Shown piece after piece: positions 6,956 to 63,057 of a DNA stretch of 64,000 nt (its first letter is position 1; the number at the start of each line of letters is the position of its first letter). The translations under genes and the position numbers were made by a program. The notes below the pieces were generated by a model. It had not been told where the DNA came from. It ran no database searches and worked only from the letters and a program-made list of their open reading frames with translations. Source of the DNA: Nemertoderma westbladi (Eukaryota; Animalia; Xenacoelomorpha); assembly GCA_032718475.1 (NCBI GenBank), contig JAUCBJ010005606.1, positions 1,471 to 65,470 on the forward strand, written 5' to 3'.

Positions 6956-9900
6956 ATGGTAAAATATACCTTCTTATATAGTATTCTAATGTGTTATTGG
7001 GTTTCTCTTCCTTATTGTTATAGTACTACGAATAATTTCAATGTAGTAAAATCAATAAACTCCAAAAACTTATCACATCTCACACCAGTCGACAAAACTA
7101 ATTGTATTAATTGTAGTTGCCCCCCCTCAATGGTAAATGACAAATGTATATTTAACTCCAAAGATATAAATGATGAAAAGGCTATTATTACATGCAAAAC
7201 CAAAAACCAAGTCTCCAAATGTACCTACAAATCTCAAAGTTTATCTCATATATACCACCCTCCTGATGAGACTGTGTATCTCATAAAAAAGGTTGACTAC
7301 TGGAAGGATGAAATAGATCCAATGATAACATGCACTCCAAGTAAGTCAAATGAACAATGTGAACCCCACAATATTAGGCTTGAAATTGAATATCCTGCTG
7401 AGGATGTCGAGATCTATGTTGGAGAAAATGATTTACCACAAGATTTAAGAGTCAAGCCAGGAGTAGATGTTCAGTTGCGCTGTAGATACATTGATGGTCA
7501 TCCTTCAACGAAATGCCACCAATGGTATAAAAATGAAGAAATAATAAAAGATGAAGATTCAAAGGAACTTAATTTTAAAAATATTTCAAAAAAAGATGCC
7601 GGGAATTATGAATGTGAGGCATTAACAACATATTCGAATGGAGATACCGATTCTACAGAGTCAGAAATTGTTAAAATTATAGTTGAATATTGTGATAATA
7701 TAATCTTAGACCTTGGGAAAACATCAGAATCACCCAACTACTCAAATCTAACTACATATACCAATTATAATGTTACAATTATAGTTGGTGAGCTTGTCGA
7801 GTTTGAGTGGAAATATAATTCAACAACAGTGTCGACAGATATATATTTCTCATGGTCAGGGACAGGGACACCAGATATCCATCAGGATCACAAAATAAAA
7901 TTCATTGCCAGCAAGGACTACAAGGGTAATTTGTTAACAGTAGCTAAATGTCTGTTTCAGTGTGAAGGATGTCAGCAAGAGATAAATTACAGAGCTAACA
8001 TAAGCATTGACGTCGTATATTGTATAGATGCAAAACTCATTATTACTTATAATGAGAATCCAGTCTCAATCCCAAATGATGGCAACGTAATTGTTATAAG
8101 AGATAGTGAGGTTGTGTTGCAACTGGTGGTTGATGCTAATATAGAACTTGTTTACAGCTGGAAGGGGCCTGGTATAATAATCTCAAATGTGTCTCAACAA
8201 GCTTTTATTGCAACAACCAATAGAAACGGCCAATTCAATGCCTCAATTTCATGTTTATATGACTCATATTTAAATTATACAAACGATTATTCTTTCAGTT
8301 TCAACTTGAAAATTGGAATTCCCCCTGAGCTAGACAATCCAGAACAAGTTGAGGAAGTTGATAAACATGAGAATGTTACAATGAAATGTGAAGCCTGGAG
8401 CAATCCGCCACCCAGAGGTGACTATGGAGTTGTAGAGTGGCGATTTCAAAATCCAAACAATGACCCAATTAAGCCAGACAACAAGACGAAATTTATCACC
8501 ATACAGTCTGTAGATTTGCCAAATGATGGGCAATGGCATACTGAAACCTCATTAAAGATTGTGAATGCTGATGTACAAGCTGATGGAAAATATTATTGCG
8601 ATTTTACTAATGGTGTTGGGGTAAAGGGAAGTGGTGTAGTCGTATTACTTATCAGAAGAGAACCAGAACTAATTGATGTGAAATCAATAGAAGTTGAATG
8701 GCTCAATGCAACACAAATGAAAATATCTTGGCAAGAAAGCGATAATGGTGGTTATACACAGTATTATCAGATTGAGTTATATGAATTTCCATTGAATCCT
8801 GTACTGAAAGAAGAACCAACTAATGAAACTTCCCAATATCTCATTCAAAAGTTAAACCTTAGTGAGGGCAATAGTGAATTTGTTCAAAGTGGCGTCAGTG
8901 GAAATTATGAATATCAGCTATTCTATCAATCATGTAATAGGCTGGGGTGTACTGTTAAAGAACATGCATATATCAAATACAACTATACTCCCAATAAATC
9001 GTCACAAGGTCTAAGTGAAGGTACGAAAATTACCATTGCTGTTGTTATATCTGTAACAATTATTATTAGTATAGCAATTGCTGTGTACTATATGATATTT
9101 CGAATAACAAGAAAACCAACAAAGAGTGAAGAACCTCCTGTAAACCCTTCACAAGGTAAAACCGTAAATGATGTTTATAGTGATTACATAGAATATGGAT
9201 CAGCAAATTATTCAAATAATAGGAAATCTCTAACTGAATACAAACCTAAAACAAACCGTGAATCATTACGCTCAAAAGACTCCACAAAAGAAGCCGCAGA
9301 TATATATGCAGAATATGCAGTGTCTGGTGGTTCAATGGAGGAAGTTAAGAAAGAGCTGAAAAGTGCAAAAAACGATTTAGTTCTTAAAAATACAAATAAT
9401 GCTCCACGTGTATCGAATGTTCCTCCAAGAAATGTTACCTTTGGTGTTAAGGACCATTCACGCTTCTCCACTGCAGTCCCAGATGCTCATGACAACCAAG
9501 TCACAGTAGATAATGAAGACTATGTGGAACTTGGGAGTGAAACCTACTACACTACAGACACTATTAATGTGACTAAACCAATGGAACAACCAACACCAAC
9601 AACACAAACAACAAAACCGAAGGGTTACTTGAAGAGGTTACGGGCACTAGCTAAGAGTTTCTCCAAGAATGCTATTAATTCACCCAAGAATGATAACCCA
9701 GTTGACCATGAATACTTTGTCTATGATTGTCAACACAAAATCAATTCCCAAGGGAGGAAAGGAACATCTATGACTACTGATAATCCTGCATTTTTACCAG
9801 ATCCCGAAGATAACTCAAACTCACTAAACTATATTCCAACAACCTCAGGTGAACGATTGAATACCAATAGATGGAGTTCAAATACAACAGACAATGACCA

Positions 9901-10399: not shown

Positions 10400-10591
10400 C
10401 AACTTTCTATAGCTGCTACCCGAGAGTAGTAGGGGTGGGTGCTACTCCTATCCCAAGATTTGCTCCCAATTATTTAACTGGTACACATTTTATCAACCCC
10501 AGTGGATGAAAGGCTGAGTGGACCCTGGCGAGGCTGAACCTACAACCAATAGATTGCAGGCCCGGTGCTCAGCCAACTGAGCTACCCCGCC
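10385..10591 (-). mobile_element. tRNA-derived SINE abutting or overlapping the 3' end of gene 1
   Basis: Reverse complement: GGCGGGGTAGCTCAGTTGG (A box)...GGTTCAGCCTCGCC (B-box-like), then GTCCACTCAGCCTTTCATCC..GATAAAATGTGTACCAG, which resembles a central motif conserved in metazoan SINE families. Confidence 0.75.
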
Positions 10592-16863: not shown

Positions 16864-16884
16864 AGAAAAGAAATATTATTATTT

Positions 16885-22068: not shown

Positions 22069-25000
22069 ATGTATACCTGCATATATATCATTGCCATTTA
22101 TTACTTAGTTTTGCTTCCCGAGAGTTACAGTTATTTCACTGTGAATAATTTCAATATATTAGGTACAACAAACTCCAAAAATATATCATACCCTAATCCA
22201 GTTGATAAATCAGTATGTTTTCAATGCAGCTGTTCCTCTTTGACGGGGACAACATGCAAATTAAAATCCGAAGACATAAATTCTGGAAGGGCTTTTGTCA
22301 CCTGCAAAAATCCATATTCTGGCCTTTCCAAATGGTCATATAAGGGTCAGTCTTTAACTCCTATAACGTTTGTCCAACCTGATACAACGCATTTCTTTAT
22401 TAATAATGTTAACTACTGGAAGGATGAGATTGCCCCGACCCTAGAGTGTAGTGGAAATGGCTTTGCTAATAGTTGTTTGTTCAAATGTTCCATTGATCTT
22501 CAAATTCAATATCCAGCTGAACGGGTCGAGATTTATTATGGGATCTTACCTTTAAATGATTTAAGGGTCAAAGAAGGAGACGATGTTGATTTGCGTTGTG
22601 AGTATAAAGATGGTAATCCTCCAACCCAATACCATAAATGGTATAAAGATGAAGAAATGATAGAACATAAAGATTCGAAGTTCCTTAATTTGAAAAAAAT
22701 ATCAAAGCATGAGGCAGGGCAGTATAAATGTGAAGCCTTAACGAGATATTGGGATGGAGTGATTGAATCTACATCTTCAAAACTTGGTAAAATTACAGTT
22801 GAATATTGTGACAACATGATCTTGCACCTTGGGATGACTTGGGAATCACCACAACCAAACCAAATTTTAAATTACGATGTCACAATTATTGTTAATGAAA
22901 TGGTCAAATTTGAGTGGAAATTTGATTCAACAACAAACATGTACTTTTTATGGACACAGGGTACCAGTATACAAGAGACTGGTAGCGGAATAAAGTTCAT
23001 TGCAAGGAAAGACAGTCAAGGGAGTTTGTTAGCTGAAGCTGTATGTAGCTTTCAGTGCCAAACATGTGAAGTGGTGAGATACAAAGCAAACATAACAATT
23101 GACGTTGTATATTGTATAGATGCAAAACTCATTATTACTTATAATGGGATTCCAGCCTCAACCCTAAATGATGGCAATGTTCTTGTTATAAGAGATAGTG
23201 AGGTTGTGTTGCAAATGGAAGTTGATGCTAATATTGAACTTTTTTACAGCTGGAAGGGGCCTGGTATAATAAACTCAAATATACCTCAACAAGTTTTTAT
23301 TGCAACAACCAATAGTAACGGCCAATTCAATGCCTCTGTGTCATGTTTATATGACAAATCTTTAGAATATGCAAAAGATTACTCTTTCAATTTCAACTTG
23401 ACAATTGGAATTCCTCCTGAGCTAGACAATCCAGAACAAGTTGAGGAAGTTGATAAACATGAAAATGTTACAATGAAATGTGAAGCCTGGAGCAATCCGC
23501 CACCAAGAGGTGACTATGGAGTTGTAGAGTGGCGATTTCAAAATCCAAACAATGACCCAATTAGGCCAGACAACAAGACGAAATTGATCACCATAGATTC
23601 TAAAGATTTGACAAATAATGGAAAAATTATAAAATGGTATACTATAACATCGTTAACTATTGTGAACGCTGTGGTACAAAATGGCGGAGAATATTATTGC
23701 GATTTTATTAATGGTGTTGGGGTAAAGGGAAGTGGTGTAATTGAATTGATCATCAGAAGAGAACCGGAAAGAATTGATGTGAAATCAATAGAAGTTGAAT
23801 GGCTCAATGCAACACAAATGAAAATATCTTGGCAAGAAAGCGATAATGGTGGTTATACACAGTATTATCAGATTGAGTTATATGAATTTCCATTGAATCC
23901 TATACTGAAAGAAGAACCAACTAATGAAACATCTCTAAATCTCTTACAAAAGTTAAACCTTAGTGAGGGCAATAGTGAATTTGTTCAAAGTGGCGTCAGT
24001 GAAAATTATGAATATCAGCTATACTATCAATCATGTAATAGGCTGGGGTGCACTGTCAAAGAACATGAATATATCAAATATAACTATACCTCTACCAAAT
24101 TAACCGAATCAACACAAGGTCTCAGTGAAAGAACAACAATTACCATTGCTGTTGTTATATCTGTAACAATTATTATTAGCATAGCAATTGCTTTATACTA
24201 TATTATATTTCGAATAACAAGAAAACCAAAGAAGTGTGAAGAACCTCTTGTAAATACTTCACAAGGAAAAACAGAAAATGATGTTTGCATTGAATATATA
24301 GAATATGGATCAGCCAATTATGCAAATAATAGGAAATCTCTAACTGAATACAAAACTAAAACAAACCGGGAATCATTACGCTCAAATGACTCAACAAAAG
24401 ATGCCGCAGATATATATGCAGAATATGCGGTGTCTGGTAGTTCAATGGAGGAACTTAAGAAAGAGCTGAAAAGTGCAAAAAACGATTTAGTTCTTAAAAA
24501 TACAAAGAATGATCAATGTGTATCGAATGTTCCTCCAAGAAATGTTACCTTTGGTGTTAAGGACCATTCACGCTTCTCCACTGCAGTCCCAGATGCTCAT
24601 GACAACCAAGTCACAGTAGATAATGACGACTATGTGGAACTTGGGAGTGAAACCTACTACACTACAGACACTATTAATGTGACTAAACCAACTGAACAAC
24701 CAACACCAACAACACAAACAACAAAACAGAAGGGTTACTTGAAGAGGTTACGGGCACTAGCTAAGAGTTTCTCCAAGAATGCTATTAATTCACCCAAGAA
24801 TGATAACCCAGTTGACCATGAATACTTTGTCTATGATTGTCAACACAAAATCAATTCCCAAGGGAGGAAAGGGACATCTATGACTACTGATAATCCTGCA
24901 TTTTTACCAGATCCCGAAGATAACTCACTCAGCTATATTCCAACAACCTCAAGTGAACGATTGAATACCAATAGATGGAGTTCAAATACAACAGACAATG

Positions 25001-25509
25001 ACCAGGAACCTGCAGAATATTTTGTAATTGAACGACACAACTCCATGGAATGTCTGGAAGTTGAATATGGAAGTTCAACGTCTTTCCCAAATACTAAAAT
25101 AAAACAAATGCAGAGTTTTAAAGGCACAATCGGAAATGTGATGCCTAAATCTAATTTAAGGAATGTCAAAGAAATTAAATCAAAAGATGCCGGCTATGTA
25201 GACCAAGAGGCTAATTCTGGAATATATTCTTCAGTTATAAAACAAGTAAAAAAAGAAAATGATAAACCAATTCATATTCCTGGAGTTGTTAGATCAGAAG
25301 ATGTAGATAAATACCACCAAAATGATGATGATACTGCAGTATATACAACCGTTGTAAAACCGCTAGGGAAAACAGAAGATAAACCAAAAAATATTCCTGG
25401 TCTTATAGTTCAACCAAATGAAGAGCTTGATGGATCTGATACAGAAAAACCGGATATTCCAGAATATAGTCCGGCACTTTTTAACATTGTTGATTATAAA
25501 GAGTGGTAG
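22069..25509 (+). CDS. Receptor gene 2: single-ORF Ig/FN3/TM receptor with long tail, 1146 aa
   Basis: Same architecture as gene 1; close to identical from IDVVYCIDAKL (about 23098) through the tail, with a divergent N-terminal third. Confidence 0.93.
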   Translation: MYTCIYIIAIYYLVLLPESYSYFTVNNFNILGTTNSKNISYPNPVDKSVCFQCSCSSLTGTTCKLKSEDINSGRAFVTCKNPYSGLSKWSYKGQSLTPITFVQPDTTHFFINNVNYWKDEIAPTLECSGNGFANSCLFKCSIDLQIQYPAERVEIYYGILPLNDLRVKEGDDVDLRCEYKDGNPPTQYHKWYKDEEMIEHKDSKFLNLKKISKHEAGQYKCEALTRYWDGVIESTSSKLGKITVEYCDNMILHLGMTWESPQPNQILNYDVTIIVNEMVKFEWKFDSTTNMYFLWTQGTSIQETGSGIKFIARKDSQGSLLAEAVCSFQCQTCEVVRYKANITIDVVYCIDAKLIITYNGIPASTLNDGNVLVIRDSEVVLQMEVDANIELFYSWKGPGIINSNIPQQVFIATTNSNGQFNASVSCLYDKSLEYAKDYSFNFNLTIGIPPELDNPEQVEEVDKHENVTMKCEAWSNPPPRGDYGVVEWRFQNPNNDPIRPDNKTKLITIDSKDLTNNGKIIKWYTITSLTIVNAVVQNGGEYYCDFINGVGVKGSGVIELIIRREPERIDVKSIEVEWLNATQMKISWQESDNGGYTQYYQIELYEFPLNPILKEEPTNETSLNLLQKLNLSEGNSEFVQSGVSENYEYQLYYQSCNRLGCTVKEHEYIKYNYTSTKLTESTQGLSERTTITIAVVISVTIIISIAIALYYIIFRITRKPKKCEEPLVNTSQGKTENDVCIEYIEYGSANYANNRKSLTEYKTKTNRESLRSNDSTKDAADIYAEYAVSGSSMEELKKELKSAKNDLVLKNTKNDQCVSNVPPRNVTFGVKDHSRFSTAVPDAHDNQVTVDNDDYVELGSETYYTTDTINVTKPTEQPTPTTQTTKQKGYLKRLRALAKSFSKNAINSPKNDNPVDHEYFVYDCQHKINSQGRKGTSMTTDNPAFLPDPEDNSLSYIPTTSSERLNTNRWSSNTTDNDQEPAEYFVIERHNSMECLEVEYGSSTSFPNTKIKQMQSFKGTIGNVMPKSNLRNVKEIKSKDAGYVDQEANSGIYSSVIKQVKKENDKPIHIPGVVRSEDVDKYHQNDDDTAVYTTVVKPLGKTEDKPKNIPGLIVQPNEELDGSDTEKPDIPEYSPALFNIVDYKEW

Positions 25510-26170
25510 TAACTATAATATAAAGATAATCTCCTAACAGATAGAGGGAAAATTAAATTGGCGCAAGGCGGCAAGTTGGCCATCACGGAAAATTACTTTC
25601 TCGACTCGCTGAATTAATAATATTAATTATCAATTAAGGGAAATAAAAAGAAGCAGGATACAATAGCATGTTAATTAATCAAAACAATAAATGAGAATCA
25701 ATAGCGCAGGATATAAATTATTATTATTTTGACGATAACTAGCTGTAATAGTAATTTGTTTCCAAGAGTCCCCAACCATAATAGAAAAACAACTTTCATC
25801 TCTACAATTTAATATACATTCCAATTTTGTGCTTTTGAAAATACTGGTTAAAAATTATGTCCTAAGTATAATTAATTATAAGTGTATTTAAATAAATCAA
25901 CGATTGTTTTACAAATTATTACATTAATATTATTACAGTTACTTTAATAATATTGTAAGAAATACTTTGTATGTATTACCAATAATATTATTAAAAATAT
26001 TATAATATGTACATCCTTACACTTAATATAAATATATTATAACCCAAGAAAGACCCAATTGTTTTACAATCCAAAACTCTTCAGAATTTGGTTTCGGTTT
26101 ATATATTGATAAGATTAAATTCATACTTTTCTCAACTCCTATATTACCATATTATTATGTCCAAAAGAAT

Positions 26171-28204: not shown

Positions 28205-28405
28205 CAACCTATATCCCATGAATAGAGGCGGCATGTGCCGGGTCTTTTTGCATTTTTTGATCCTTCAGATCAACTCCACCATGCAGAGCTGGGAAGAGAA
28301 AAAGGTCCTCATCAACATCGTTCACATGAGTCCCAAACAATGCAGGGATGTAGGTGGACAGTATTGCTGTCTGTATTGGGGGAAAATCGGCGACATCTGT
28401 TGGGA
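28205..28405 (-). mobile_element. Possible CRE-clade non-LTR retrotransposon fragment
   Basis: PIQTAILSTYIPALFG...DLFLFPALHGGVDLKD resembles the post-RT 'IPAL.G...L.LP...GGLG' region of CRE-type elements. Confidence 0.4.
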
Positions 28406-34460: not shown

Positions 34461-36003
<1,543 letters not shown>

Positions 36004-40492: not shown

Positions 40493-43369
40493 ATGCTACG
40501 ATACTGCATAAATACTGTTTTCCTATATATTTTAATCTTAATTGCTCATACCAGTTATTCTTTAGCTTTGGAAACTATTGTTCAGAGTAGAGATAGCAAA
40601 AGTGAACTCAGTGAAGAATACAAGAAGGACTCTGTTGACTGCAGTTGTTCATCTAATCAGGACCCATGTCATCTAAGATCCCGAGATATACTTAAAGGGG
40701 AAGAATATGTGAGCTGCACAAATTCAAATGGAGAACGTAATGAATGGTTCTATGGAGGTCAAAGGTTAACACCTGATGAATTTATCAAACCGGATGAGAC
40801 AAGATTTTATATAACTAGTGTCGATTATTGGAAATATAACACATCGCCATTAGTATGCAAAACAAAGAAGAAGAGACAGAAAAAATGCAAAATATCACTC
40901 ATTATAGAATATCCTGCAGAAAAGGTTCAAGTATATCATGGTATATTGCCGTTGACAGATCTAAGAGTTAAGATCGGTGATGATGTTGTGTTACGATGCA
41001 AATATACAGATGGTTATCCTAAGACACAAACCCATCTATGGTATAAAGATGATGCTATTTTACCAGGTGATTTCTCCAATACGCTTTCCATTACAGATAT
41101 TTTGAAAACAGATGCAGGACGATACAAATGTGCTGCTAAAACAACATATAGCTTTGGGTCTGATTACGACATAATTCAGTCAAACAGTGGAAAAATTACA
41201 GTTGAATATTGTGATAATGTCAGACTATTTTTTAGCTATAAATTTGAAAAACCACAAGCCGATAGCATCTCAAAATTCAAAGTAACAATTGTAGTTGGGG
41301 AATTTGCGAAGTTTATGTGGAGATTCAAGTCAACAACTAATATGTTTTTCATATGGAATGGAGAAGCAACACAAGAGTTCGGACAATCACTTGAATTTCC
41401 AGCTACAAAGGAGAGTAAAGGTGTCATAAATACTGAGGCAGAATGCAGTTTCCAGTGTGAAGATTGCCGTTCTGTAAGTTACAGAGCACAAATAGATATT
41501 GATACAATATACTGCATCGATGCAAAGCTACGAATTACCACCAATGGAGAAGCACCCCTAAAGCTAAATGATGGAAGCTTCCTTGTTATGAAAGACAGTG
41601 ACGTTGTGATGCAACTAGAGGTTGATGCTAATATAGACCACCAATTTGCCTGGAATGGACCTGGAATTCGTTCATTGGTTGAATCCTTTAATAAATCCAA
41701 ACAACATTTTCAAGCAACACCAAATAGAAATGGCAAATTCGGTGCAACAGTTTCTTGTTTTTACAATTTCGAATTCGAATATGAAAACCACCATAATTTT
41801 GATTTTAACTTAACAGTTGGAGTGTCTCCAGATTTGGAAATAGAAAAACAAGACATGTATGTTGATAAATCAGGTAATGTAACCATGATGTGTAAAGCCG
41901 TGAGCAATCCACCACCTACCGGAGTTTATGGGGCTGTGCACTGGCGATATAATGATCCAAATAGTTCTCCAATTCAAGCAGATAACCGAAAGACATTCCT
42001 TTCAATAGACTCGCAGGATATATCAAGTAATGGCATTATTACACATTGGAATACTGAAACATTTTTAAAAATAACAAATATTGAAGTAAAAGATGCTGGA
42101 ATATATTATTGTGATTTCATTAATGGCGTTGGAATACTTGGAAGTGGTGTAATTTCCCTGCATGTCAGATCTGAACCAGAAAGTATTGATGTAAGTTCAT
42201 TGGAAGTCAAGTATATCAATGCATCAACCATGGAAATAACATGGAATGAAACCTTTAATGGTGGTTATGCACAATATTATCTGATAGAGTTATATAGTCT
42301 ACAACAAGATATAAATAATGATACATCTCCAAATTTAATGCAGTCGTTAAATCTAACAAACAGAAGATTTGTTCAAGGAGGAATTAGTGATAGGCATTCC
42401 TATGAAATAATTTGTCAATCATGCAACCAACTAGGTTGCAGTAGAAAGAACAATGCCTTTATTCAGTACGATTATAATGCAGAGAAATTAACTGGTGGTT
42501 CATCAGCTGGAACGACAATTGTCATTGCAGTCGTGGTGTCAGTAACTATAATTGTAATCATGGTTGTTGCTTTGTATTATTTTGTAATCCGAGTTGCATC
42601 TAGACGTTCTGATAATTTGAAACAAGTTGAAAATCCGACAAAGCAAGGAAACTCACAGGCAGTTGTGGGTGATGATGAGTATATAGTGTATGATGTAAAC
42701 AAAAGAGCAAGCAACAGGAAATCTCTCACTGAGTATGCGCTCCGAAACAAACATAATTCTGATGAATCTTTACATCCAAAAGAGATAAACATGAACAAAG
42801 ATGCGGCTGATTTGTATGCAGAGTATGCAGTTTCTGGAGGATCAATGGAAAATCTAAAGAGAGAATTGGAAACAATCAATAATAAATCACCTCATAGAAA
42901 TACATATGTGATTGATAACTCTCGACCAGCAAGAATCACAGAAAATAATAGTAACATCTTTGGTGTCAAGTTACCAGCATTAACAGATCACCATAATCAA
43001 ACTACAAGTGAAGATATATACAGCAACGGAGATTATTTGGAACTAGAAAGTGAAACTTACTACGATGTGAATTCCTTCAAAGAGAAGACACAGCCATCGT
43101 CAGTAATGAAGCAAGGTGGATTCTTTAAATCAGTGAAGGGTCTTAGGAAGAAGTTATTGGTTGTTAATAAGAATGGCCCGGATGCCAATGTACCAAGTAC
43201 CAGTGATCACGAATATTTCGTCTATGACAATAAATCTCAGTTATGCACCCAGGGAGTAGCACCAGTAAAATCAATAATCGAAGCTGATGATGACCAACCT
43301 GATATAAGTAATGAACTATATTTTGTGTTGGAGCAAGATGCAGTTGACGAATATTCTGTTTACGGATAA
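40493..43369 (+). CDS. Receptor gene 3: single-ORF Ig/FN3/TM receptor with short tail, 958 aa from ATG 40493
   Basis: ATG at 40493 (MLRYCINT) aligns with the gene 4 start; Ig motifs VVLRC..WYKD..DAGRYKC and VTMMC..DAGIYYC; FN3 ITWNETFNGGYAQYYLIELY; TM IVIAVVVSVTIIVIMVVALYYFVI. Confidence 0.93.
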   Translation: MLRYCINTVFLYILILIAHTSYSLALETIVQSRDSKSELSEEYKKDSVDCSCSSNQDPCHLRSRDILKGEEYVSCTNSNGERNEWFYGGQRLTPDEFIKPDETRFYITSVDYWKYNTSPLVCKTKKKRQKKCKISLIIEYPAEKVQVYHGILPLTDLRVKIGDDVVLRCKYTDGYPKTQTHLWYKDDAILPGDFSNTLSITDILKTDAGRYKCAAKTTYSFGSDYDIIQSNSGKITVEYCDNVRLFFSYKFEKPQADSISKFKVTIVVGEFAKFMWRFKSTTNMFFIWNGEATQEFGQSLEFPATKESKGVINTEAECSFQCEDCRSVSYRAQIDIDTIYCIDAKLRITTNGEAPLKLNDGSFLVMKDSDVVMQLEVDANIDHQFAWNGPGIRSLVESFNKSKQHFQATPNRNGKFGATVSCFYNFEFEYENHHNFDFNLTVGVSPDLEIEKQDMYVDKSGNVTMMCKAVSNPPPTGVYGAVHWRYNDPNSSPIQADNRKTFLSIDSQDISSNGIITHWNTETFLKITNIEVKDAGIYYCDFINGVGILGSGVISLHVRSEPESIDVSSLEVKYINASTMEITWNETFNGGYAQYYLIELYSLQQDINNDTSPNLMQSLNLTNRRFVQGGISDRHSYEIICQSCNQLGCSRKNNAFIQYDYNAEKLTGGSSAGTTIVIAVVVSVTIIVIMVVALYYFVIRVASRRSDNLKQVENPTKQGNSQAVVGDDEYIVYDVNKRASNRKSLTEYALRNKHNSDESLHPKEINMNKDAADLYAEYAVSGGSMENLKRELETINNKSPHRNTYVIDNSRPARITENNSNIFGVKLPALTDHHNQTTSEDIYSNGDYLELESETYYDVNSFKEKTQPSSVMKQGGFFKSVKGLRKKLLVVNKNGPDANVPSTSDHEYFVYDNKSQLCTQGVAPVKSIIEADDDQPDISNELYFVLEQDAVDEYSVYG

Positions 43370-49989: not shown

Positions 49990-52900
49990 CTGTGACTGCC
50001 AGACGCCAGAGACAAAGAAAAGATGAGCACATGAGAACCCCGATTATCAGAGGGAGAGAGGACACCGCCGCGGACCTCGGACGACACCAACCAAACGATC
50101 CGCGAGGCCGCGACGAGACGGTATCGACCTGCGACACCGGATTCGCCGACGAGGGACGATCCGGTACCCCAAGCGGAGGGCGGCCGTCAATCACGAGAGA
50201 GGGACGAGTCGACGCACGACGGCGGTAGGAGTACCGAAGTCACCAGCCAGCCACAGGCCGAGGGCGACGGACGGCCCACCGGAACGGCGATGGTGGGGCC
50301 GCCGGTACGACGCCGAACCAGGAGAGGAGGAGGAGATGTCGGCGAAGAGGACGTTGGGACCAGCGATCGGCTACGACGGTCCTACAACGCCACGAAGAAA
50401 CTATTACAGGAGGCCAGAGAGGGAGGAAAGGTAAACCAGGGAAAGTTAAACCAACGGCTAGGTGAGTCGAATAAACACTTTCGGTATCTAGTTCGTTTTG
50501 GGCAGGGAGAACTGGTGAGTGAGAGAGCGAGGGGGGTCGCCACCGAACTATTCGAACTGTGGCAATCCGGGGTTATGGAGCCTGAAGTAGTGTACGTAGG
50601 GCCATATTTAGTGGATGCCAGGGGAATTAAGTTAGTGGGTTGGGTGGATCCGCATGAGGGCGAACCTGAGGTTAACCCCGAGGATTTGGTCTCGTCGGTT
50701 AGCGAGAACCCCAGAAAGCAGGGGAAAGTTAGTAGGACAGAGAGGCGACGGGAGTCTGTTGCGACCGATAAGTCCGCTACATCCTCCGCGAAAGCAAGAA
50801 GGGTGTTAGAGATAGATCTGGCGTGTCAACTAGACATGGTGGCGCTAGACCAGAAATAATTAGAGAGGCAGTTGGATGAGGGAACTGCTTTGTTAGAGAA
50901 AGAGAGAGAGTTGGCGAGGGAATGTAGAGAGAGGGCCGAAAGGGTGGCGAAGAACTGTAGAGAGCAAGAAGAGAGAGAGACAGAGGAACGTAAAGAGCGA
51001 GAGGCGAGAGTAGAGAACGAGCGTAAAGAGCGGGAGACGAGAGTAGAGAACGAGCGTAAAGAGCGAGAGATGAGAGTAGAGAACGAGCGTAAAGAGCGAG
51101 AAGTGAGAGAGGCAGCGAGGGTGGAGAGAGAAACGAATGAACATAAAGAGCGGGAGGCGAGAGTGGAGAGCGAGCGTAGAGAGCGGGAGGCGAGAGTAGA
51201 GAGCGAGCGTAGAGAGCGGGTGGCGAGAGAAACAGAGTTAGCGAACCAGAGTTTACGAGAGGATAGAGAGAGAGAGAGAGAGCGGGAAAGCGCATGCGGG
51301 ATGATATGCATGCCCAGTTGAGGGGGCTTATGCAATATCAGGCCAAGCAGAAGCGCCGACTAGACCTGGTGCAACTAGGATTATCTGAGAGTGAGGCTGG
51401 CTCGGGCAGTATTTACGAGGAGCCAGAAGTGATGGAAACGTTTGTTAATACCCCACTTGCAGGGACCGGACGACAGACCCAAGACTGGTGTAACCGTATG
51501 GGCGGGGGGGGGGGGGGGGGGTAATAATAATACGTTAGAAGGCATTAATATTAATAGTACCGTAGTAGACAACCCTAATCAAACTTTCATTGCAGGAAAT
51601 AATATTTTGCCCAGTAATAATAACTTAAATCCAAATAATTCTAACATAAATATACAAAATAATAACCCTAATATAAATATAGAAAATAATTCAAATAATA
51701 ATTTAAATTCAAATATACAAAATAATCCGATTCCAATTTAAATATACAAAATAATAATTCTAACATAAATACACAAAATAATTTAAATAACAACCCAAAT
51801 TCCGAACAGAATAATTTAAATAATTTAGGTAATAATGTTGTTGATAATGGTGCTATTAATATGAACGCGGGAGACATAGGTGGTCCGACCAGCGAGAGCC
51901 TGCAAGGCCACGTAGTTAGTATGCAGGGAGTAGCGGGGGTGAGTCAACCTGACGGGAGCCTGCAAGGCCACGCAGTAGTAGAGGGAGAGGCGGGGGTGAA
52001 TAGACCCAGCCGCAGTAGAGATAGTGCGTCGAATAGAGAGGGGCGTAGAAGCGAAGTAGAAGATAGTGAAGCAATAGGTGGCGAGTGGGGGGGGGGGGGG
52101 GGTACAGGCGTCCCACCACGGGAGATTAGTGGTGCGAGGGGGGGCAGACAATGTCCCACGGGCGTCGGCGGATCATGCGAGGGGCAAGTTAGGTGAACCG
52201 CAGCACCCGGCGATGGAGAATAGTAGGGGGATTACGAATATCCCCAGCAGCATCCAACCAGCTAGAGAGAGAGATGTTGGCGTTGTGAGCAGGCGAGCGA
52301 AAAGACGCCGAGCCCAGTCAGAAGACGGAAGAAGAACAGTGGAGTTTAACCGGGAGGTCAACGAGAGATCTCATGAGCGGGAACGCTACACTGAAGAGAG
52401 AAGAAGAGAAGAGAATTGGAGAAGCGTTGCTACGAGCGACTGGAGAGCGAGGATGGATAGCGAGCCGTCGGTAGTAGAGATGGAGTTGGAGAGTCAGTGG
52501 GGTCGAACTCCGGGAGATTGCCGTCGCCCCGGAGAGACGCAGCCTGGCGAAATATATCATACGCCAGGAGAGGGGTACAGAATGTACTGGTACGAGGACG
52601 AGAACAGGAGAGGGGATCGAAGAGAAACTTCCCAACGGGATATAGCTGCCGATCGAGGGTACGGTAGTCGCAGGGAGGACTTCTTGGATTATTCGAGAAG
52701 GTTAAACTTCGGTCCGGAAGGACACATACAGACTGCAGGACATACTGTAGGCCTTACTGCACATACTATAGGCCATGCTGGGAGAGATAGTGTAGGCGAT
52801 AGGGTAGCGCGAACAACGGGATTAGATCCGGAAGTCGCGGCATATATACCGGTAGGTAGGCAAGAAGTGGATAGGCCTATACCGGTACCAGCACAGCAGT

Positions 52901-55900
52901 ATGACTATAATATGCAGGGACATAACATATATCCAGGGGAGGGGAGAGTTATTGCAGATAGGTGTATGGGCCCCAATATATTAACATCAACCCCAGTACC
53001 AAACATACCACCGGTGGGGGGGGGGGGGGGACAGGGTGACATTCCCCCATTACAATATCAACAATACACTCAACCGGGAATAAGAACATCGAACCCCCTG
53101 GACGAGAACAGATCTTGCGACACGGAGATATGGAGGGGGCCGTTACCCCCAATGGTATATCCGACGCAAAGAAAGTCAACAGGCCCGACGGGCGGACCGC
53201 ACCCAACGGGAGAATCTGTACAGCATCCCTCGAACCCATTGGAAGCACAGGCAATGGGAATGGCAACACTTATCGATGCGCTCAAGACCAGGATCGAGCT
53301 ACCACCAGTAGAGCCATTTAAATTCGACGGAAGCAGACCGGAAGAATACCTGCAATTCCGACGCATGTACAGCAACGAGATATTAACTAAGAACCTGACG
53401 CAGGCGGAGTGCCTAAAATATCTACAGGTATACACAGGAGGCCCAGCGTACGACATCGTGAGGCAGTATCAGGGCATCGAGGGTGGCTTCACGACTGCAT
53501 GGCGGGCCCTAGACAGGGAATACGGACACCCTGCCAAGATCATCCGGCAGACCCTGAGGGGAATAACATCGGGTGGCCTACAGGATAACCCTGTTAGCAT
53601 AAAGACCTTCGCGAACAAGGTCGAGAAGGCGTTAATCGTGCTGAAAACGCTAGACGCGCCATACGAACTCAACGCATCTAATAATATCACCACGATAGCG
53701 CAGGCACTGCCGATCTGGCTGCGCAATAAATGGAGAAAGATCGCCTTCTCCACCCGGGAGAAGAAAGGTGCGGAACCGGGCCTAGAGGAAATGTCGAACT
53801 TCCTCAACTACGAAGCAGAGTTAATCACGGACCCAGTCTACAGCGAGGATAGTCTGGGGAAGGCGCCGAGGGCCGAATACAACAGGCCGAAACCAGAGCA
53901 CAATGCGGCAAATGCGTTGCCAAAATTAAGACAATCCCTACCATACGCGGCGTCACAGGGGACTGCAAGTCCACAGATAGCTGGGAGTGGGGCCAGACTG
54001 TGGCACGAACAGGGACAAAATAACAACACAAACAAATATAATCCCAACACACCCAGTAGGCCAAACCCAAATAACCAAAACACTAAACCGGTAGACGTGA
54101 ACCTACGCGCAATACGTATAGGGCTATATAGGGAATGTTACAACCCAGAATAGAAATGTCAATTGCATAAAGACAGAACCCATAAGACCATGGACTGTAA
54201 GCATTGGCTGGCATTACCCGAACAAGATCGGAAAGCCTATGCGGATAAGAATGGAATTTGTCACCGATGTGTGGTAGGAGGACACAAGGTTGAAGAGTGT
54301 AAGGAGACACCAGTAAGATTCGGTCAAGGCAAAGGTCAAACAATGGCGACAAGCACCATAGGGGCGAAGAAAAGGGGAACGGTGCTACTGGGGGTGGTAC
54401 CGGTGAGGGTAATAGGAGAGGGCGGTCGATCAGTTACTACCTTGATGCTGGTTGACAGTGGAGCAGCCTTCACATTGGTGGAGAATTGGGTGGCTGAAGA
54501 GATAGGGTTACAGACGAGGCCAAGCAGAATGGCGGTAACTACCATCTCCAGCAAAGATGAGGTCCTGGAGATGAGGACGGGAAGGTGCGAGATATCAGCG
54601 ATAGCACCGGGATGTGACTATGGGGCGACCATCGACCCCATCTAGGTAATAGAATCAATCAACATAAACACCAGCCGACCAACTAACATCGAGGTCGACC
54701 AGTATAGATTCCTGGACAACATCGATTTCTCGATACCAGAGGTGGACGTCAGGAAGGTATCCATCATAGTGGGAATGGACTGCCCGACGGCTCACGAAAG
54801 AGTACAGACGATCTTCGGGGAAGACAGACAGCGCGATCCGATGGCAATTCTCACACCATTCGGATGGACGCTGAGCGGCCCAATCAAAACCAAAATTCCA
54901 TTTAGGATGTCGGAGACATCGGGGTGCATGTTCGCGGGGACTATGAGGGAGATGGAAGATGAAGGAGCGGAGGAACAGCTGAAGAGACTGTTGAGGCAGG
55001 CTTTTGAAGGACTGAAGGAGACCGGGGTCGGAACCTCGGTAGAGGATAAACAGGCAGTTGCAGAGTGTGAAGGAGTCGATGAGATGCGACGAGGGACGGT
55101 ACACCATAGGCATGGTGTGGAAACAGCCGAAGTTGCCGTTGCCTGACAACAAGAGGATGGTACTCACGAGGCTTCGCATACTGAAGCAAACGCTTAAACG
55201 GAGCCCCGAGAAGGATGAGTACATCCATAGGACGATAAAGAAGTACGCCGAGAAAGGATGGGCCGTGGAGTTGCCGGTTGACGAACCAATCACGGACAGG
55301 ACCTACTACCTGCCACTTCATGTGGCTTTAGACCCAAAGAAGGGTAACTGCGGATGGTGGTTGACGCATCGGCTAAAACCAATGGCAAGAGCCTGAACGA
55401 CTATCTGCTCAAGGGCCCCAATATCTACAACTCGGGGATAGAGGTCTTGTTGAGATTTAGGAATGGGAGGCACACCTTCACGTGCGACATCGAAGGCATG
55501 TTCAACCAGGTCCGTATGACGGAGGAGGACAGCGACAGCCAGCGCTTCCTATGGTACAACGGCGACGAGGAATCATCGACAATACCGATGTACAAGATGG
55601 TGGTGCAGAACATGGGGGCCAAGTCGTCCTCATTCACGACGACTGTGGCTGTAAGAGATACGGTAGAGGGGAAAGAGGGGAAGTATAGCGCCAAAGCGAT
55701 CGATATGATTCGACACAGCTTCTATGTAGACGACGGGATGGAGTCTGGAAACACGGTTAAAGAATTACTGGACACAGGGCGCGAGGTTCGCGACATCCTG
55801 AAAGGATCCGGATTTAACCTGACCAAGTTTCAGTCCAGCTCAGAGGAGTTTATGAAAGCCATAGAGGACAGGCGGCCAGAGTCGACCATGGACAACCCCA

Positions 55901-58330
55901 CAACAGCCAAGGGACAGGACATGGCGGACAAGAGAGTAGAGTCTCAGCAGAAGGCGCTGGGGATCGTGTGGAACCGGGAGACGGACGAGTTCAAGTACCA
56001 ACAGAGCCAGGAGGGCGCGGAGATCCACACAAAGAGGGGCTATGTATCGTACATAGCAAGGATATACGATCCCTTAGGCCTGGCATCCCCATTGTTAGTC
56101 ACGGGGAAGCAGATACTTAAGAAAGTATATAAGTTAAAGGACGAGTGGGATACGGAGGTCCCGGAAGAGATATGCAAGCAATGGAGCAAGTGGACAGGGA
56201 GTCAAGAACAGATGGGGACGTACAGCATGCCACGCGTGTATTTCCCGAACGGGGACATGACGGATCTGGACCTACACATGTTCTCCGATGCATCATTGGA
56301 AGCATACGGAGCGGCACTCTACCTAGTACAGCGAAAGGGGGCTCATAAGCCCAGACTTGCATTCAGTAAAGCAAAGTCGATGCCGCCAGATTCAGCATCA
56401 GTCCCAAAATTCGAGTTGACAGCTGCAAGATTAGGAGTAAGGGCCACAGCCTACTTGATGGACACTATTCCCAACATAGTGGAAACACACTACTGGATGG
56501 ACTCCATGGTAGTGCTCGGGTGGCTGCACAACGAGAAGACGAGATACCCTATATTCGTCGTGAATAGGGTGGACGAAATATGGGCGACGACAGACTTGGA
56601 AAGGTGGCACTACTGCCCAACGGACGAGAACCCAGCAGACTTGTTATCGAGGGGTGTGGCACGCCACACTTTCTCAAAGAAGGAAGTGCTATGGCAGCAT
56701 GGGCCACACTTCCTGAATGATAGATCGGCCTGGCCACCAATGAAGAAGGTGGACCCGGGCTCAGAGGAAGTAGCACCAGGGGAAGAGGGAGAAGATTCAG
56801 AAGGAGAAGAGATATATAGTCAGATGGTGAGGGAAGTCAGGGAGGTACAACCGAAATTATAAGAGCCATGTGACAACCCGACGGATAGGATACTCAGCTA
56901 CAGCTCCAGTTGGTACAAGACCAAGAAGTTGGTAGCGTACTGGAGGGCCTACGGGGATTTCCTCAAGGGAGTTGGCAAGGACGCCAAGAGGAAACCAAAT
57001 ATCTATCGAGTTAGCAAACAACAACATCTTCGTCGGGACAGCGAGCTCATCACGCTGTCACCACAACTCAACGATGACGGGATTCTAGTGATGAATTCCA
57101 GAGTGCTGAATAACAACAGCCTTATCATTCCACCAAAACCCATTATCATCCCCAACAGATCGCTGATAGTCCACCAGATCAATTGGGACTCCCACAAGTC
57201 GATAGGCACCAACCAGACCCTCACAGAGATACGGAGGACCTTCTGGATCGCGCAGCTAAGAAAGAAGGTGAAGGCGGTAGTGGGGCAGTGCCAGACCTGC
57301 CGACGGACAAGGAAGGAGAGGGCCGTACAGGAGATGGCGCCATTACCGGCCAGTAGAGTGAGACAGCACGACCCGCCATTCACGCACTGCGGCGTAGACA
57401 TGTACGGGCTGATTAAGATCAAGGTGATGCGACACACGGAGAAACGATACGGCATCATCTTCGTATGTAACAACACGAGGGCGGTAGGAATAGAACTCGC
57501 CCAAGACGCCACGGCATCGGCATTCATCAATGCCTTAGAGAGATTTAGAGACCGCAAAGGTGGAACGATCGCAGTGATCTATTCCGACAATGGAACCAAC
57601 TATGTGGGAGCGGAGAACGAGTTGGCGGAGGCCTTGGACATCCTAGAAGGAGAAGAGGTCAGGGCAGCCATGAGGATACAACAGGTGAAGTGGGAAAGGA
57701 GGACGCCGTATGCGCCACATACGTTAGGATGCGTCGAGAGGCTTGTGGGTAGTTCCAAGCATCTGATGACGAAGTTGATGAACACCCACATGGTGACAGA
57801 GGACATTCTAAGAACGGTGCTAGCTAAGTGTGAGGGAATCATTAATAGCAGACCGCTATACCCGGAGAATGACGACCCGGAATCACTAGACGTGCTAACA
57901 CCGAGCCAATTTCTGATGGAAAGGCCAGCGACCATCGACATGCGGGGTGTAGACCCAGATGACATACACTCCCGACAGAGTTGGAAAGTCGCCAAGGCGA
58001 TAAGCGCCGAGTATTGGAGGAGGTGGGTCGAGGAATACCTACCCACATTACACAGGAGGAGCAAGTGGAGAAACACCACTCGAGAGTTAAAGAAAGGTGA
58101 CTTAGTGATCGTCACTGACGACACAATCATCAACAATCAGTGGAGGCTAGCGAGAGTAGTAGACACTTACCCTGACGAGGACGGAAGAGTCCGATCGGTG
58201 GAAGTGCGGATAGGGGTAAGATAGGAGCTAAAGATAGAAAGACCTACAGGAGGACTGTAGGGAAGTGCTGCCTATTATAAGGGGCAGCATAGAGTTTAGT
58301 CGTCCAAGTGTTGGACTGAGGGGGGTGGGA
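49990..58330 (+). mobile_element. Decayed BEL/Pao LTR retrotransposon gag-pol
   Basis: Gag FDGSRPEEYLQF..YLQVYTGGPA; Zn knuckle CHRCVVGGHKVEEC; protease LVDSGA; RT FYVDDG; RNase H FSDASLEAYGA; integrase SDNGTNYVG..ERLV; C-terminal WRRWVEEYLPTL. Order is PR-RT-RH-IN. In-frame stops at 50857, 54151, 54643 and 56860, plus frameshifts. Paired LTRs not found. Confidence 0.92.
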
Positions 58331-58479
58331 TTGAGGGCGAGACGCCCTTCCCACACAAAATATAAAAAAATAATAAAAATAATAAATTGATGATTGTGGT
58401 GCATATAATGCTAATGCTAAATAATTGTGGTGCATATGTGTGTTGCGTCTCAAATTCGCAAAACTCGAATCTAAGAAAC

Positions 58480-60177: not shown

Positions 60178-63057
60178 ATGCTGCGATACTCCATAAATAC
60201 TGTTTTCCTATATATTTTAATTTTAATTACTCATACCAGTTATTGTTTAGCAGCTGAAACTATTGCTCAGATAAGTGATGAAAGTGAACTCGTAGAAGAA
60301 TACAAGGGGCCAAAGGAGTCTGTTGACTGCAGTTGTTCATCTAATCAGGATCCATGTCATCTAAGATCCCGAGATATACTTAAAGGGGAAGAATATGTGA
60401 GCTGCACAAATTCAAATGGAGAACGTAATGAATGGTACTACAGAGATCAAAGGTTAACACCTGATGAATTTATCCAACCGGACGAGACACGATATCATAT
60501 AACAAGTGTTGATTATTGGAAATATAACACATCGCCATTAGAGTGCAAAACAAAGAAGAAAAAACACGATGACAGATGCGAAATAACTCTCATTATAGAA
60601 TATCCTGCAGAAAAGGTTCAAGTATATCATGGTATATTGCCGTTGACTGATTTAAGAGTTAAGGCCGGTGATGATGTTGTGTTACGATGCAAATATACAG
60701 ATGGTTATCCTAAGACACAAACCCATCTATGGTATAAAGATGATGCTATTTTACCAGGTGATTTCTCCAATACGCTTTCCATTACAGATATATTGAAAAC
60801 AGATGCTGGACGATACAAATGTGCTGCTAAAACAACATATAGCTTTGGGTCTGATTACGAGATAATTCAGTCAAACAGTGGAAAAATTACAGTTGAATAT
60901 TGTGATAATGTAATACTATATTTTAGTTATAAATGGTACGAACCACAAGCTGATAGCCTCTCGAAATACAAAGTAACAATTGTAGTTGGGGAATTTGCAA
61001 AGTTTATGTGGAGATTCAAGTCATCAACTAATATGTTTTTCGTATGGAACGGAAAAGCAACACAAGAGTTCGGACAATCACTTGAATTTACAGCTACAAA
61101 GGAGAGTAAAGGGATTGTAAATACTGAGGCAGAATGCAGTTTCCAGTGTGAAGATTGCCGTTCTGTAAGTTACAGAGCACAAATAGATATTGATACAATA
61201 TACTGCATCGATGCAAAGCTGCGAATTACCACCAATGGGGAAGCACCCCTAAAGCTAAATGATGGAAGCTTCCTTGTTATGAAAGACAGTGACGTTGTGA
61301 TGCAACTAGAGGTTGATGCTAATATAGACCACCAATTTGCCTGGAATGGACCTGGAATTCGTTCATTGGTTGAATCCTTTAATAAATCCAAACAACATTT
61401 TCAAGCAACACCAAATAGAAATGGCAAATTCGGTGCAACAGTTTCTTGTTTTTACAATTTAGAATTCGAATATGAAAACCACCATAATTTTGATTTTAAC
61501 TTAACAGTTGGAGTGTCTCCAGATTTGGAAATAGAAAAACAAGACATGTATGTTGATAAATCAGGTAATGTAACCATGATGTGTAAAGCCGTAAGCAATC
61601 CACCACCTACAGGAGTTTACGGGGCTGTGCACTGGCGATATAATGATCCAAATAGTTATCCAATTCAAGCAGATAACCAAAAGACATTCCTTTCAATAGA
61701 CTCGGAGGATATATCAAGTAATGGCATTATTACACATTGGAATACTGAAACATTTTTAAAAATAACAAATATTGAAGTAAAAGATGCTGGAATATATTAT
61801 TGTGATTTCATTAATGGCGTTGGAATACTTGGAAGTGGTGTAATTTCCCTTCATGTCAGATCTGAACCAGAAAGTATTGATGTAAGTTCATTGGAAGTCA
61901 AGTATATCGATGCATCAACCATGGAAATAACATGGAATGAAAGCTTTAATGGTGGGTATGCACAGTATTATCTGATAGAGTTATATAGTCTACAACAAGA
62001 TATAACTAACGATACATCTCCAAATTTAATACAGTCGTTAAATCTAACAAACAGAAGATTTGTTCAAGGAGGTATTAGTGATCAGCATTCCTATGAAATA
62101 ATTTGTCAATCATGCAACCAACTAGGTTGCAGTAGAAAGAACAATGCCTTTATTCAGTACGATTATAATGCAGAGAAATTAACTGGTGGTTCATCAGCTG
62201 GAACGACAATTGTCATTGCAGTCGTGGTGTCAGTAACTATAATTGTAATCATGGTTATTGCTTTGTATTATTTTGTAGTTCGAGTAACAGCAAGACGATC
62301 TGATAAATTTAAATCATTTGAAAATCCCCCAAAGCAAGGTAACTCACAGGCGGTTGTGGGTGATGATGATTATATGGTGTATGATGTAAACAAAAGAGCA
62401 AGCAACAGGAAATCTCTCACTGAGTATGCTCTCAGAAAAAAACATAATCGTGAATCTTCACATCCAAAAGAGATAGACATGAACAAAGATGCGGCTGATT
62501 TGTATGCAGAGTATGCAGTTTCTGGAGGATCAATGGAAAATCTAAAGAGAGAATTGGAAGCAATCAAGAGTAAATCACCGCATAGAAATACATATGTTGT
62601 TGATAACTCTCGACCAGCAAGAATCATAGAAAATAATAGTAACACCTTTGGTGTCAAGGTACCAGCATTAACAGATCACCATAATCAAACTACAAGTGAA
62701 GATATATACAGCAGCGGAGATTATTTGGAACTAGAAAGTGAAACTTACTACGATGTGAATTCCTTCAAAGAGAAGACACAGCCATCGTCAGTAATGAAGC
62801 AAGGTGGATTCTTTAAATCAGTGAAGGGTCTTAGGAAGAAGTTATTGGTTGTTAATAAGAATGGCCCGGATGCCAATGTACCAAGTACCAGTGATCACGA
62901 ATATTTCGTCTATGACAATAAATCTCAGTTATGCACCCAGGGAGTTGCACCAGTAAAATCAATAATCGAAGCTGATGATGACCAACCTGATATAAGTAAT
63001 GAACTATATTTTGTGTTGGAGCAAGATGCAGTTGATGAATATTCTGTTTACGGATAG
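60178..63057 (+). CDS. Receptor gene 4: single-ORF Ig/FN3/TM receptor with short tail, 959 aa
   Basis: Close paralog of gene 3 across its full length, with clustered substitutions in domains 1 and 3 and the juxtamembrane region. Confidence 0.93.
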   Translation: MLRYSINTVFLYILILITHTSYCLAAETIAQISDESELVEEYKGPKESVDCSCSSNQDPCHLRSRDILKGEEYVSCTNSNGERNEWYYRDQRLTPDEFIQPDETRYHITSVDYWKYNTSPLECKTKKKKHDDRCEITLIIEYPAEKVQVYHGILPLTDLRVKAGDDVVLRCKYTDGYPKTQTHLWYKDDAILPGDFSNTLSITDILKTDAGRYKCAAKTTYSFGSDYEIIQSNSGKITVEYCDNVILYFSYKWYEPQADSLSKYKVTIVVGEFAKFMWRFKSSTNMFFVWNGKATQEFGQSLEFTATKESKGIVNTEAECSFQCEDCRSVSYRAQIDIDTIYCIDAKLRITTNGEAPLKLNDGSFLVMKDSDVVMQLEVDANIDHQFAWNGPGIRSLVESFNKSKQHFQATPNRNGKFGATVSCFYNLEFEYENHHNFDFNLTVGVSPDLEIEKQDMYVDKSGNVTMMCKAVSNPPPTGVYGAVHWRYNDPNSYPIQADNQKTFLSIDSEDISSNGIITHWNTETFLKITNIEVKDAGIYYCDFINGVGILGSGVISLHVRSEPESIDVSSLEVKYIDASTMEITWNESFNGGYAQYYLIELYSLQQDITNDTSPNLIQSLNLTNRRFVQGGISDQHSYEIICQSCNQLGCSRKNNAFIQYDYNAEKLTGGSSAGTTIVIAVVVSVTIIVIMVIALYYFVVRVTARRSDKFKSFENPPKQGNSQAVVGDDDYMVYDVNKRASNRKSLTEYALRKKHNRESSHPKEIDMNKDAADLYAEYAVSGGSMENLKRELEAIKSKSPHRNTYVVDNSRPARIIENNSNTFGVKVPALTDHHNQTTSEDIYSSGDYLELESETYYDVNSFKEKTQPSSVMKQGGFFKSVKGLRKKLLVVNKNGPDANVPSTSDHEYFVYDNKSQLCTQGVAPVKSIIEADDDQPDISNELYFVLEQDAVDEYSVYG

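Follow-up and report, generated by a model that had tools for sequence, protein, structure and literature searches.

A 64,000-nucleotide stretch of Nemertoderma westbladi DNA (assembly GCA_032718475.1, contig JAUCBJ010005606.1, positions 1,471 to 65,470 of the forward strand; hereafter the window) carries a tandem cluster of four receptor genes, G1 to G4. Their products are type I receptors of the immunoglobulin superfamily (IgSF), with true immunoglobulin (Ig) domains (D2 and D5), a fibronectin type III (FN3) domain and a single transmembrane (TM) helix, and the family is apparently undescribed. By analogy with established IgSF biology, these proteins are on balance probably a small lineage-specific adhesion or recognition family, in which paralog-specific outer domains (D1-D3, the tips) would bind and tails bearing phosphotyrosine would signal. 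The diversity of the family appears to lie between paralogs, not between alleles.

Each receptor is encoded on the plus strand by one stop-free open reading frame (ORF). G1 (6956..10399; 1147 amino acids, aa) and G2 (22069..25509; 1146 aa) belong to a long-tail type, and G3 (40493..43369; 958 aa) and G4 (60178..63057; 959 aa) to a short-tail type. The starts are 15.1, 18.4 and 19.7 kb apart, which confirms an earlier reading of the locus, made from the letters alone, as four intact same-strand ORFs spaced at 15-20 kb. The genes form two pairs: G1 and G2 are 77% identical, G3 and G4 are 93% identical, and identity across pairs is 44-47%. A six-frame search revealed no additional or decayed receptor copies in the 64-kb window.

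All four proteins share one order of parts. A hydrophobic N-terminus, read by eye as a signal peptide, is followed by five units of about 100 residues (about 510 residues in total, all before the FN3 domain). FN3 comes next, then a single TM helix, and the protein ends in a tail that is 424 residues long in the long type and about 252 in the short type. In G4, D2 (aa 143-241; 60604..60900, plus strand, as are all features of this gene) is a canonical Ig domain (Pfam Ig_3, E 1e-17; hhalign 99%), and D5 (aa 446-561; 61513..61860) is an Ig domain of V/I-set type (Pfam V-set, E 1e-9; hhalign 92%). The Ig profile used with hhalign was made from 300 of the 837 Ig domains cut from search hits, and reversed controls reached at most 15%. 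The FN3 domain (aa 562-663; 61861..62166) was recognized by fold searches, its model agreeing with FN3 structures (Z 12.1, root-mean-square deviation 2.2 over 91 residues); the Pfam fn3 match was weak and below cut-off. It is followed by the TM helix (hydrophobic window aa 672-706; 62191..62295), the one such segment in each protein, and by the cytoplasmic tail (62302..63054). FN3 and TM were thus correctly foreseen in the original prediction.

The same prediction had spoken of about five Ig-like domains, which stands for D2 and D5; D1, D3 and D4 matched no Ig profile (under 1% by profile comparison). D1 of G4 (aa 50-142; 60325..60603) is a beta-rich domain at the distal end, with extra cysteines, a putative Ig fold and a Cys-Trp-Cys spacing that resembles an Ig core. 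D3 and D4 (together aa 242-445; 60901..61512) are two beta-rich domains of 100 residues that are presumed to be Ig-like. Both lack the canonical B-strand cysteine, an invariant cysteine opens each of them, and their likeness to one another is weak (E 0.002, probability 13%). Apart from the FN3 part, which was usable, the ectodomain was poorly modelled in two AlphaFold2 runs (mean pLDDT 33.7 and 34.9; about 50 for the D1 model); therefore, no fold was assigned to D1, D3 and D4, which are likely Ig domains. Of the 19 cysteines in the mature G4 ectodomain, 17 are invariant in all four proteins, including two with canonical spacing in D5 and two in FN3. A homodimer prediction for D1-D3 scored 0.02 against a mark of 0.32 and gave no evidence either way.

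The tails contain 21 (G1), 21 (G2), 15 (G3) and 15 (G4) tyrosines, in agreement with the multi-tyrosine tails noted earlier, and those of G3 and G4 are about 170 aa shorter than those of G1 and G2. Most of the G4 tyrosines stand after acidic residues, and 12 of the 15 are invariant, compared with 76 of the 242 other tail residues (p 2.5e-4). None of the four tails matches the patterns of the immunoreceptor tyrosine-based activation motif (ITAM), the inhibitory motif (ITIM, strict form) or the switch motif (ITSM). Three to four YxxPhi sites are present in the tails. The C-termini read LLTF (G1), YKEW (G2), SVYG (G3) and SVYG (G4), with a hydrophobic end in G1 only; since they differ among paralogs, there is no PDZ-type end in common. 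The long tails also contain an internal repeat (G1 aa 1050-1135, window positions about 10100-10360), in which two Y-S/T-S/T-V-x-K sites occur at a distance of 39 residues, and an I-P-G segment comes after each. An E-Y-F-V motif is also recurrent in the tails.

Within pairs, the differences are concentrated toward the tips. Amino-acid identity between G1 and G2 is 53% in D1-D3, 85% from D4 to FN3 and 91% in the tail. Between G3 and G4 it is 86% in D1, 98% in D2, 87% in D3 and 95-99% from D4 to FN3; because D2 is 98% identical, the variable parts of this pair are D1 and D3, and not simply the distal end. Across pairs the pattern of variable tips and conserved tails claimed by the original prediction is lost, with 42-48% identity in D1-D3 and 40-42% in the aligned tails, so that tails are no better conserved than tips. 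D1 of G1 is as distant from D1 of G2 (41%) as D1 of G2 is from that of G4 (41%).

Silent sites follow the same course. Synonymous divergence (dS) between G1 and G2 is 1.00 in D1-D3, 0.146 from D4 to FN3 and 0.064 in the tail. Silent differences number 60 of 174 before aa 354 of G1 and 37 of 686 after it, a contrast reached in 0 of 1000 permutations (p 0.001), and this best breakpoint is the D3/D4 junction. From the breakpoint test and the end of similarity, the homogenized tract of G1 extends from about aa 354 to 12 nucleotides (nt) before the stop's end (8015..10387, plus strand), and it matches G2 up to 25491. The longest identical runs are 215 nt for G1/G2 (p 0.0005) and 231 nt for G3/G4 (p 0.003). 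Because silent sites diverge in the tips just as amino acids do, the tips appear to be old and the inner part to have been overwritten later, probably by gene conversion between neighbours.

Maximum-likelihood estimates of omega were 0.27 for D1, 0.15 for D2, 0.21 for D3, 0.24 for D4-FN3 and 0.30 for the tail, and tip and base did not differ in the ratio of replacement to silent changes (Fisher p 1.0 and 0.44). At the level of whole domains, these values indicate purifying selection on the tips. The original prediction would be refuted by the lack of an excess of distal amino-acid change, and no excess beyond silent change was found in the distal domains.

Similarity between G3 and G4 spans from 35 nt 5' of the ATG to 5 nt 3' of the stop. 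Within each pair the flanks gave no alignment, and similarity ends at the ORF edges. Retroposition as the source of this ORF-limited similarity is ranked lower, since the copies are adjacent and in one orientation and the G1/G2 tract begins mid-gene. The proposed history is as follows. Old tandem duplications gave the long-tail and short-tail subfamilies, as the sequences show. Neighbouring genes then probably exchanged sequence, through conversion or unequal crossing-over, so that the stretch between D4 and the stop was overwritten in G1/G2, as were patches in G3/G4. The tips were spared, and purifying selection maintains them. The old, divergent outer domains would then probably give each paralog its own binding partner on another cell. 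The inner part in common, probably kept alike by conversion, would signal by tyrosine phosphorylation; as in other IgSF receptors, Src/Abl-type kinases may phosphorylate the acidic tyrosine sites and so recruit SH2/PTB proteins.

The same data could be read as redundant duplicates, kept for dose or new expression sites, with tip differences as neutral leftovers of the places where conversion stopped. Conversion would stall mechanically once tips exceed about 30% nucleotide divergence, tip divergence does track silent divergence, and G3 and G4 are 93% identical. The G1/G2 boundary, however, coincides with a domain junction, all four ORFs are intact amid repeats, and tips that are 41-60% identical per domain would be unlikely to keep one specificity. 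Redundancy is therefore regarded as quite unlikely.

Variation between samples was examined in public sequencing runs. G4 sequence was found in four of six runs (X1-X4; three samples from three studies), and sample S1 may be the source of the window itself. Contigs from the runs were compared with the G4 and G2 loci; the DNA-type runs come from two samples, and contigs drop rare variants. Over D1-D2 of G2, X2 differs from the window at 7 of 802 nt and X3 at 7 of 768 nt (about 0.9%). The upstream flank of G2 in X3 shows 12 differences and five gaps in 508 nt, exceeding the tip difference in that run. G1 differs from G2 at 239 of 802 nt over D1-D2 and is too distant to be mixed in. The G4 pieces differ from the window by 0 to about 1%. 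Contig variants were considered as alleles and rejected: among those listed (20 in the G4 ORF and 36 in the G2 ORF, with 125 and 215 further entries outside this set), 20 of 20 equal the G3 base and 36 of 36 the G1 base. Thus, the best-supported variation is paralog overlap. Joints in contigs over G2, with sides of 21-48 nt, were similarly rejected as splicing and taken as misplaced paralog contigs.

These results bear on the suggestion that the cluster is an allorecognition locus like Alr1/Alr2 of Hydractinia, which control fusion and rejection; a hypervariable first domain would then mediate homophilic, allele-specific binding. The layout of serial Ig domains, FN3, TM and tail fits such a locus. 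The contrast of ectodomain and tail is also comparable to that of Alr1A/E/F, for which the available part of a preprint gives about 34% identity in the ectodomains and 90-95% in TM and tails (bioRxiv 10.1101/2022.03.25.485889). However, the G2 tip differs less than the flank from the same run, and first domains of Alr2BC alleles are far more divergent, at 59.8-84.3% identity in the same partial source (bioRxiv 10.1101/2022.03.25.485889). The listed variants are all bases of the sister paralog, replacement change in the distal domains does not exceed silent change, the tails have no ITAM or ITIM, and each gene is one ORF and not one exon per domain. The high polymorphism expected by the original prediction was not found, tip variation being low among the two samples with DNA-type runs, and this small sample lowers the odds of allorecognition. 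Because the contrast of tip and tail probably arises from inner homogenization, that pattern alone is no sign of allorecognition, which is judged very unlikely. What stands of the original prediction is a lineage-specific tandem Ig/FN3 family with signalling tails; its lean toward allorecognition does not.

Some contigs did not fit any of the four genes. One present in X1, X2 and X3 shows 47-48 differences and six gaps over 314-324 nt of the G2 FN3 domain, a stretch in which G1 differs by 18 and G3 and G4 are about 66% identical. Loose ends of contigs at 60876, 60914 and 23234 have no match in the window, and two other loose ends are exact G1 matches. Read by hand, the end at 60876 is in frame and homologous to the end of D2; those at 60914 and 23234 are two-contig consensus sequences and possibly blends. 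At least one more paralog, and probably two, would account for these contigs. Divergent alleles are the alternative, which would speak for allorecognition.

In X1, X2 and X3, contigs over the G2 tip (22073-22874) were 1.5-1.9 times as deep as those over its flank, and contigs of G3 type were shallower than those of G4 type (44 versus 154 in X1). Depth is no copy number, and these differences are a hint of extra or missing copies. They touch on a further explanation, in which G3/G4 or G1/G2 are alleles that the assembly put in tandem. G3 and G4 are 96% identical in DNA and the G3-type contigs are shallower, both of which speak for it. The flanks of each pair, however, do not align, X1 and X2 each have 5' contigs of G3 type and of G4 type, and X1, X2 and X3 all contain G1 as well as G2 sequence. 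Such an artefact is extremely improbable. No listed contig bridges two genes, so that the gene order rests on the window.

None of the six runs is listed as RNA; the evidence on expression comes from X4. Contigs of this run cover 13 and 17 of 30 bins, and two of them extend without a joint over 62181-63836 and 23875-26045, beginning in FN3 or the stalk and ending in the 3' flank. The contig over 62181-63836 opens with 24 extra letters, which we take to be a cDNA template-switch adapter. X4 is inferred to be cDNA, in which case both subfamilies are likely transcribed and the covered 3' halves contain no intron. Introns in the 5' untranslated regions (UTRs) are possible. The likely 3' UTR of G4 (63058..63836, plus strand) is covered by one X4 contig that starts inside the ORF and contains AATAAA at 63569 and 63709. 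That of G2 (25510..26045, plus strand) is covered by one X4 contig, with AATAAA at 25642, 25686 and 25891.

Two X4 records are mosaic. Record 26 (23875-26045) has G1 bases at all listed coding places and continues into the G2 3' flank; it is either an assembly chimera formed across the identical run of 215 nt or a copy that has truly recombined. Record 25 joins the start of G4 (60202-60473) to 63 nt of a retrotransposon remnant 1.2 kb upstream (59237-59299). It has non-window letters worth eight of the 21 G3/G4 difference sites, with no gaps, and is possibly a library chimera.

Searches for homologs returned generic similarity. Word-indexed protein searches gave no match for whole G4, for the alignment from D5 to TM (among longer proteins) or for the G1 tail. 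When 1.84 billion proteins were searched with a profile, 1273 hits resulted, and the best 150 were all repeated generic Ig matches. No full-length homolog was present among these 150, and none of them matched the TM or tail profile; the best BLASTP score among them was 67 bits, mostly from D2. In keeping with the original prediction, no one-to-one ortholog of a neural adhesion family was found full-length in this set. Sequence searches of the PDB likewise gave only generic Ig matches. Language-model look-alikes (0.94-0.95) were Ig/FN3 families of adhesion type, which accords with the favoured reading, and comprised rotifer Ig/FN3 families, Alr2, Dscam, fasciclin-2 and nephrin; the 'Allorecognition 2' cluster ranked fourth (0.95), a point for allorecognition, but the score does not separate Alr2 from the others. 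Scans of metagenome and viral contigs for related loci found no relative, and a viral origin has no support among them. No paper on such a family was found in the literature, a weak negative.

Seven of the ten named hits are CD22 or CD22-like, the others being one hemicentin-2, one DSCAML1-like and one nephrin-like protein, and eight of the ten are from vertebrates. This would suit innate immune receptors whose tips bind microbial or parasite ligands and whose tails signal, as in the snail PTC regions or in CD22/Siglec-type receptors. The tandem, lineage-specific arrangement, the exchange between paralogs and the tyrosine-rich tails with their YxxPhi sites also point in that direction. The available part of the snail study likewise describes the PTC regions as clusters of single-pass Ig and FN3 proteins that are hyperdiverse within the species (PMC10875847). 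The CD22 hits, however, rest on generic Ig matches of 67 bits at best. The immune motifs (ITAM, ITIM and ITSM) are absent, omega in the tips is below 0.3, variation between samples is low in comparison with the hyperdiverse PTC regions, and no broken copies lie in the window. An immune role is considered unlikely.

Several results weigh against the interpretation of the cluster as adhesion or recognition receptors with old tips and a homogenized inner part. The evidence does not separate adhesion from an immune role. The five-Ig layout comprises two demonstrated domains (D2 and D5) and three presumed ones (D1, D3 and D4). GC content at third codon positions (GC3) is not raised in the homogenized part (29.1, 27.9 and 22.8% in G1), unlike the case of fugu protocadherins. 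G3/G4 has no significant single breakpoint (p 0.16), and in D1-D3 its excess is stronger for amino acids (p 2e-4) than for silent sites (p 0.023). The pairwise ratio of nonsynonymous to synonymous change (dN/dS) is 0.96 in D4 of G1/G2, and it exceeds 1 in the poorly aligned linker at aa 25-49 in three of four cross-pair comparisons. In addition, X4 is labelled 'DNA?', and its nature as cDNA is our inference.

Among known systems, the receptors are not Alr, nephrin or a recognizable Sidestep member. Sidestep proteins (Drosophila Side; five Ig domains, one FN3 and TM), to which nephrin and Kirrel are kin, have as many domains as the present receptors, provided that D1, D3 and D4 are Ig. The available part of a review also describes an unstructured tail and a multi-gene expansion for them, as seen here, and gives no Side orthologs outside arthropods (PMC10084454). 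In contrast to Sidestep, the present proteins have no collinear full-length match in the best 150 hits, and D3 and D4 lack a canonical Ig cysteine. The C-terminal PDZ-binding motif of Sidestep has no conserved counterpart in the ends of G1-G4. No Side protein is among the ten named hits of the profile search, in which no Side sequence was compared directly. Nephrin has nine Ig domains before FN3 in the part of that review at hand (PMC10084454), and here there is room for five units, so that nephrin fails on domain number; nephrin clusters are still among the look-alikes.

Like the present receptors, Alr proteins are encoded in a cluster, span the membrane once and have an FN3-like fold ahead of TM, tyrosines in the tail and unusual Ig domains that Pfam does not recognize, features described in the accessible parts of two reports (PMC9546547; bioRxiv 2022.03.25.485889). 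In the second of these, some Alr paralogs have shared tails and different ectodomains (bioRxiv 2022.03.25.485889). They differ in having one to three Ig domains with one exon per domain, in contrast to five units in one ORF. In Alr, the last Ig and FN3 have three invariant cysteines each, six in all, and the canonical pair is absent in the last Ig; here that domain (D5) has a canonical disulphide and FN3 has two invariant cysteines. Many Alr tails carry ITAM/ITIM, mean identity is 24% and D1 alleles are hypervariable under positive selection, whereas the present proteins have no ITAM/ITIM, identities of 44-93%, no dN/dS excess in the tips and low variation between samples (two samples).

The clustered protocadherins of fugu and zebrafish offer a parallel in genomic mechanism: they are tandem paralogs with ectodomain and TM on one large exon, and one side of a boundary is homogenized, as are the silent sites of G1/G2. 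In fugu, according to the available part of one study, 3' regions are homogenized and 5' regions divergent with a discrete boundary, which was attributed to regional gene conversion (PMC1852091). They differ in their cadherin repeats, in numbering tens of genes, in the shared constant exons of the alpha and gamma clusters and in a GC3 that is raised when converted. A protocadherin-like cell-identity code built from Ig parts, with single-exon genes, tips of non-canonical Ig domains swapped by recombination onto shared phosphotyrosine tails at the D3/D4 junction and a copy number that varies between individuals, is a rather unlikely elaboration of these data. Chelicerate sDscam and the Biomphalaria PTC1/PTC2 genes are lineage-specific tandem Ig/FN3 expansions with variable distal parts. 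In sDscam, 5' cassettes are spliced to shared exons and there are three FN3 domains, as the review has it in part (PMC10084454); neither this arrangement nor the hyperdiversity of PTC applies to G1-G4.

The spacers between the receptor genes are largely repeats and satellites. They had been called decayed transposable-element DNA, a description that fits in the main and is less apt for 52-59 kb, where a long BEL/Pao element persists, though with in-frame stops. Its coding region (52078..58224, plus strand), between G3 and G4, contains DUF1759, an Asp protease, reverse transcriptase (RT), Peptidase_A17, integrase and DUF5641, and is disrupted by in-frame stops and a frame change. The GC-rich region around it (50000-59300; 51-54%) holds gag, protease, RT, RNase H/peptidase A17 and integrase parts of BEL/Pao, and no pair of long terminal repeats was found there. 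The element is a neighbour outside the receptor system.

Among the 93 stop-to-stop frames of at least 90 aa in the window, 40 were scanned with Pfam and showed no other host gene; the scan set aside the receptors, the large ORFs of retrotransposons and most of the frames that lie inside those or in satellites. One Asp protease alone passed the curated Pfam cut-off. Satellite arrays lie at 28405-29202, 35636-35928, 39112-40102 and 46925-48289, and include a 19-mer repeated 42 times, ACG repeated 98 times, units of 97 and 68 bp and an inverted pair of 32-bp arrays. A minus-strand open frame at 1-702 runs off the window without a Pfam match and resembles the pre-RT part of a non-LTR retrotransposon. 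G1 is directly adjoined by about 190 nt (10388-10590), which resemble a tRNA-derived short interspersed element on the minus strand. The G1/G2 match ends a few codons before the stops, and an insertion may have replaced the last residues of G1.

Tandem clusters of lineage-specific Ig receptors are frequent in the genomes of invertebrates, and the present cluster contributes to them a family that is apparently undescribed. Features that would set it apart were sought without success, namely hypervariable alleles among the two samples, positive selection at the level of domains, immune motifs and large size. The family appears to be a clean case in which variable tips and conserved tails result from a homogenized inner part and not from tips that change fast. 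The genes, each being one ORF, are easily cloned. If the tips bind in a paralog-specific manner, the family would have arrived independently at a cell-surface code, as the protocadherins and sDscam did.

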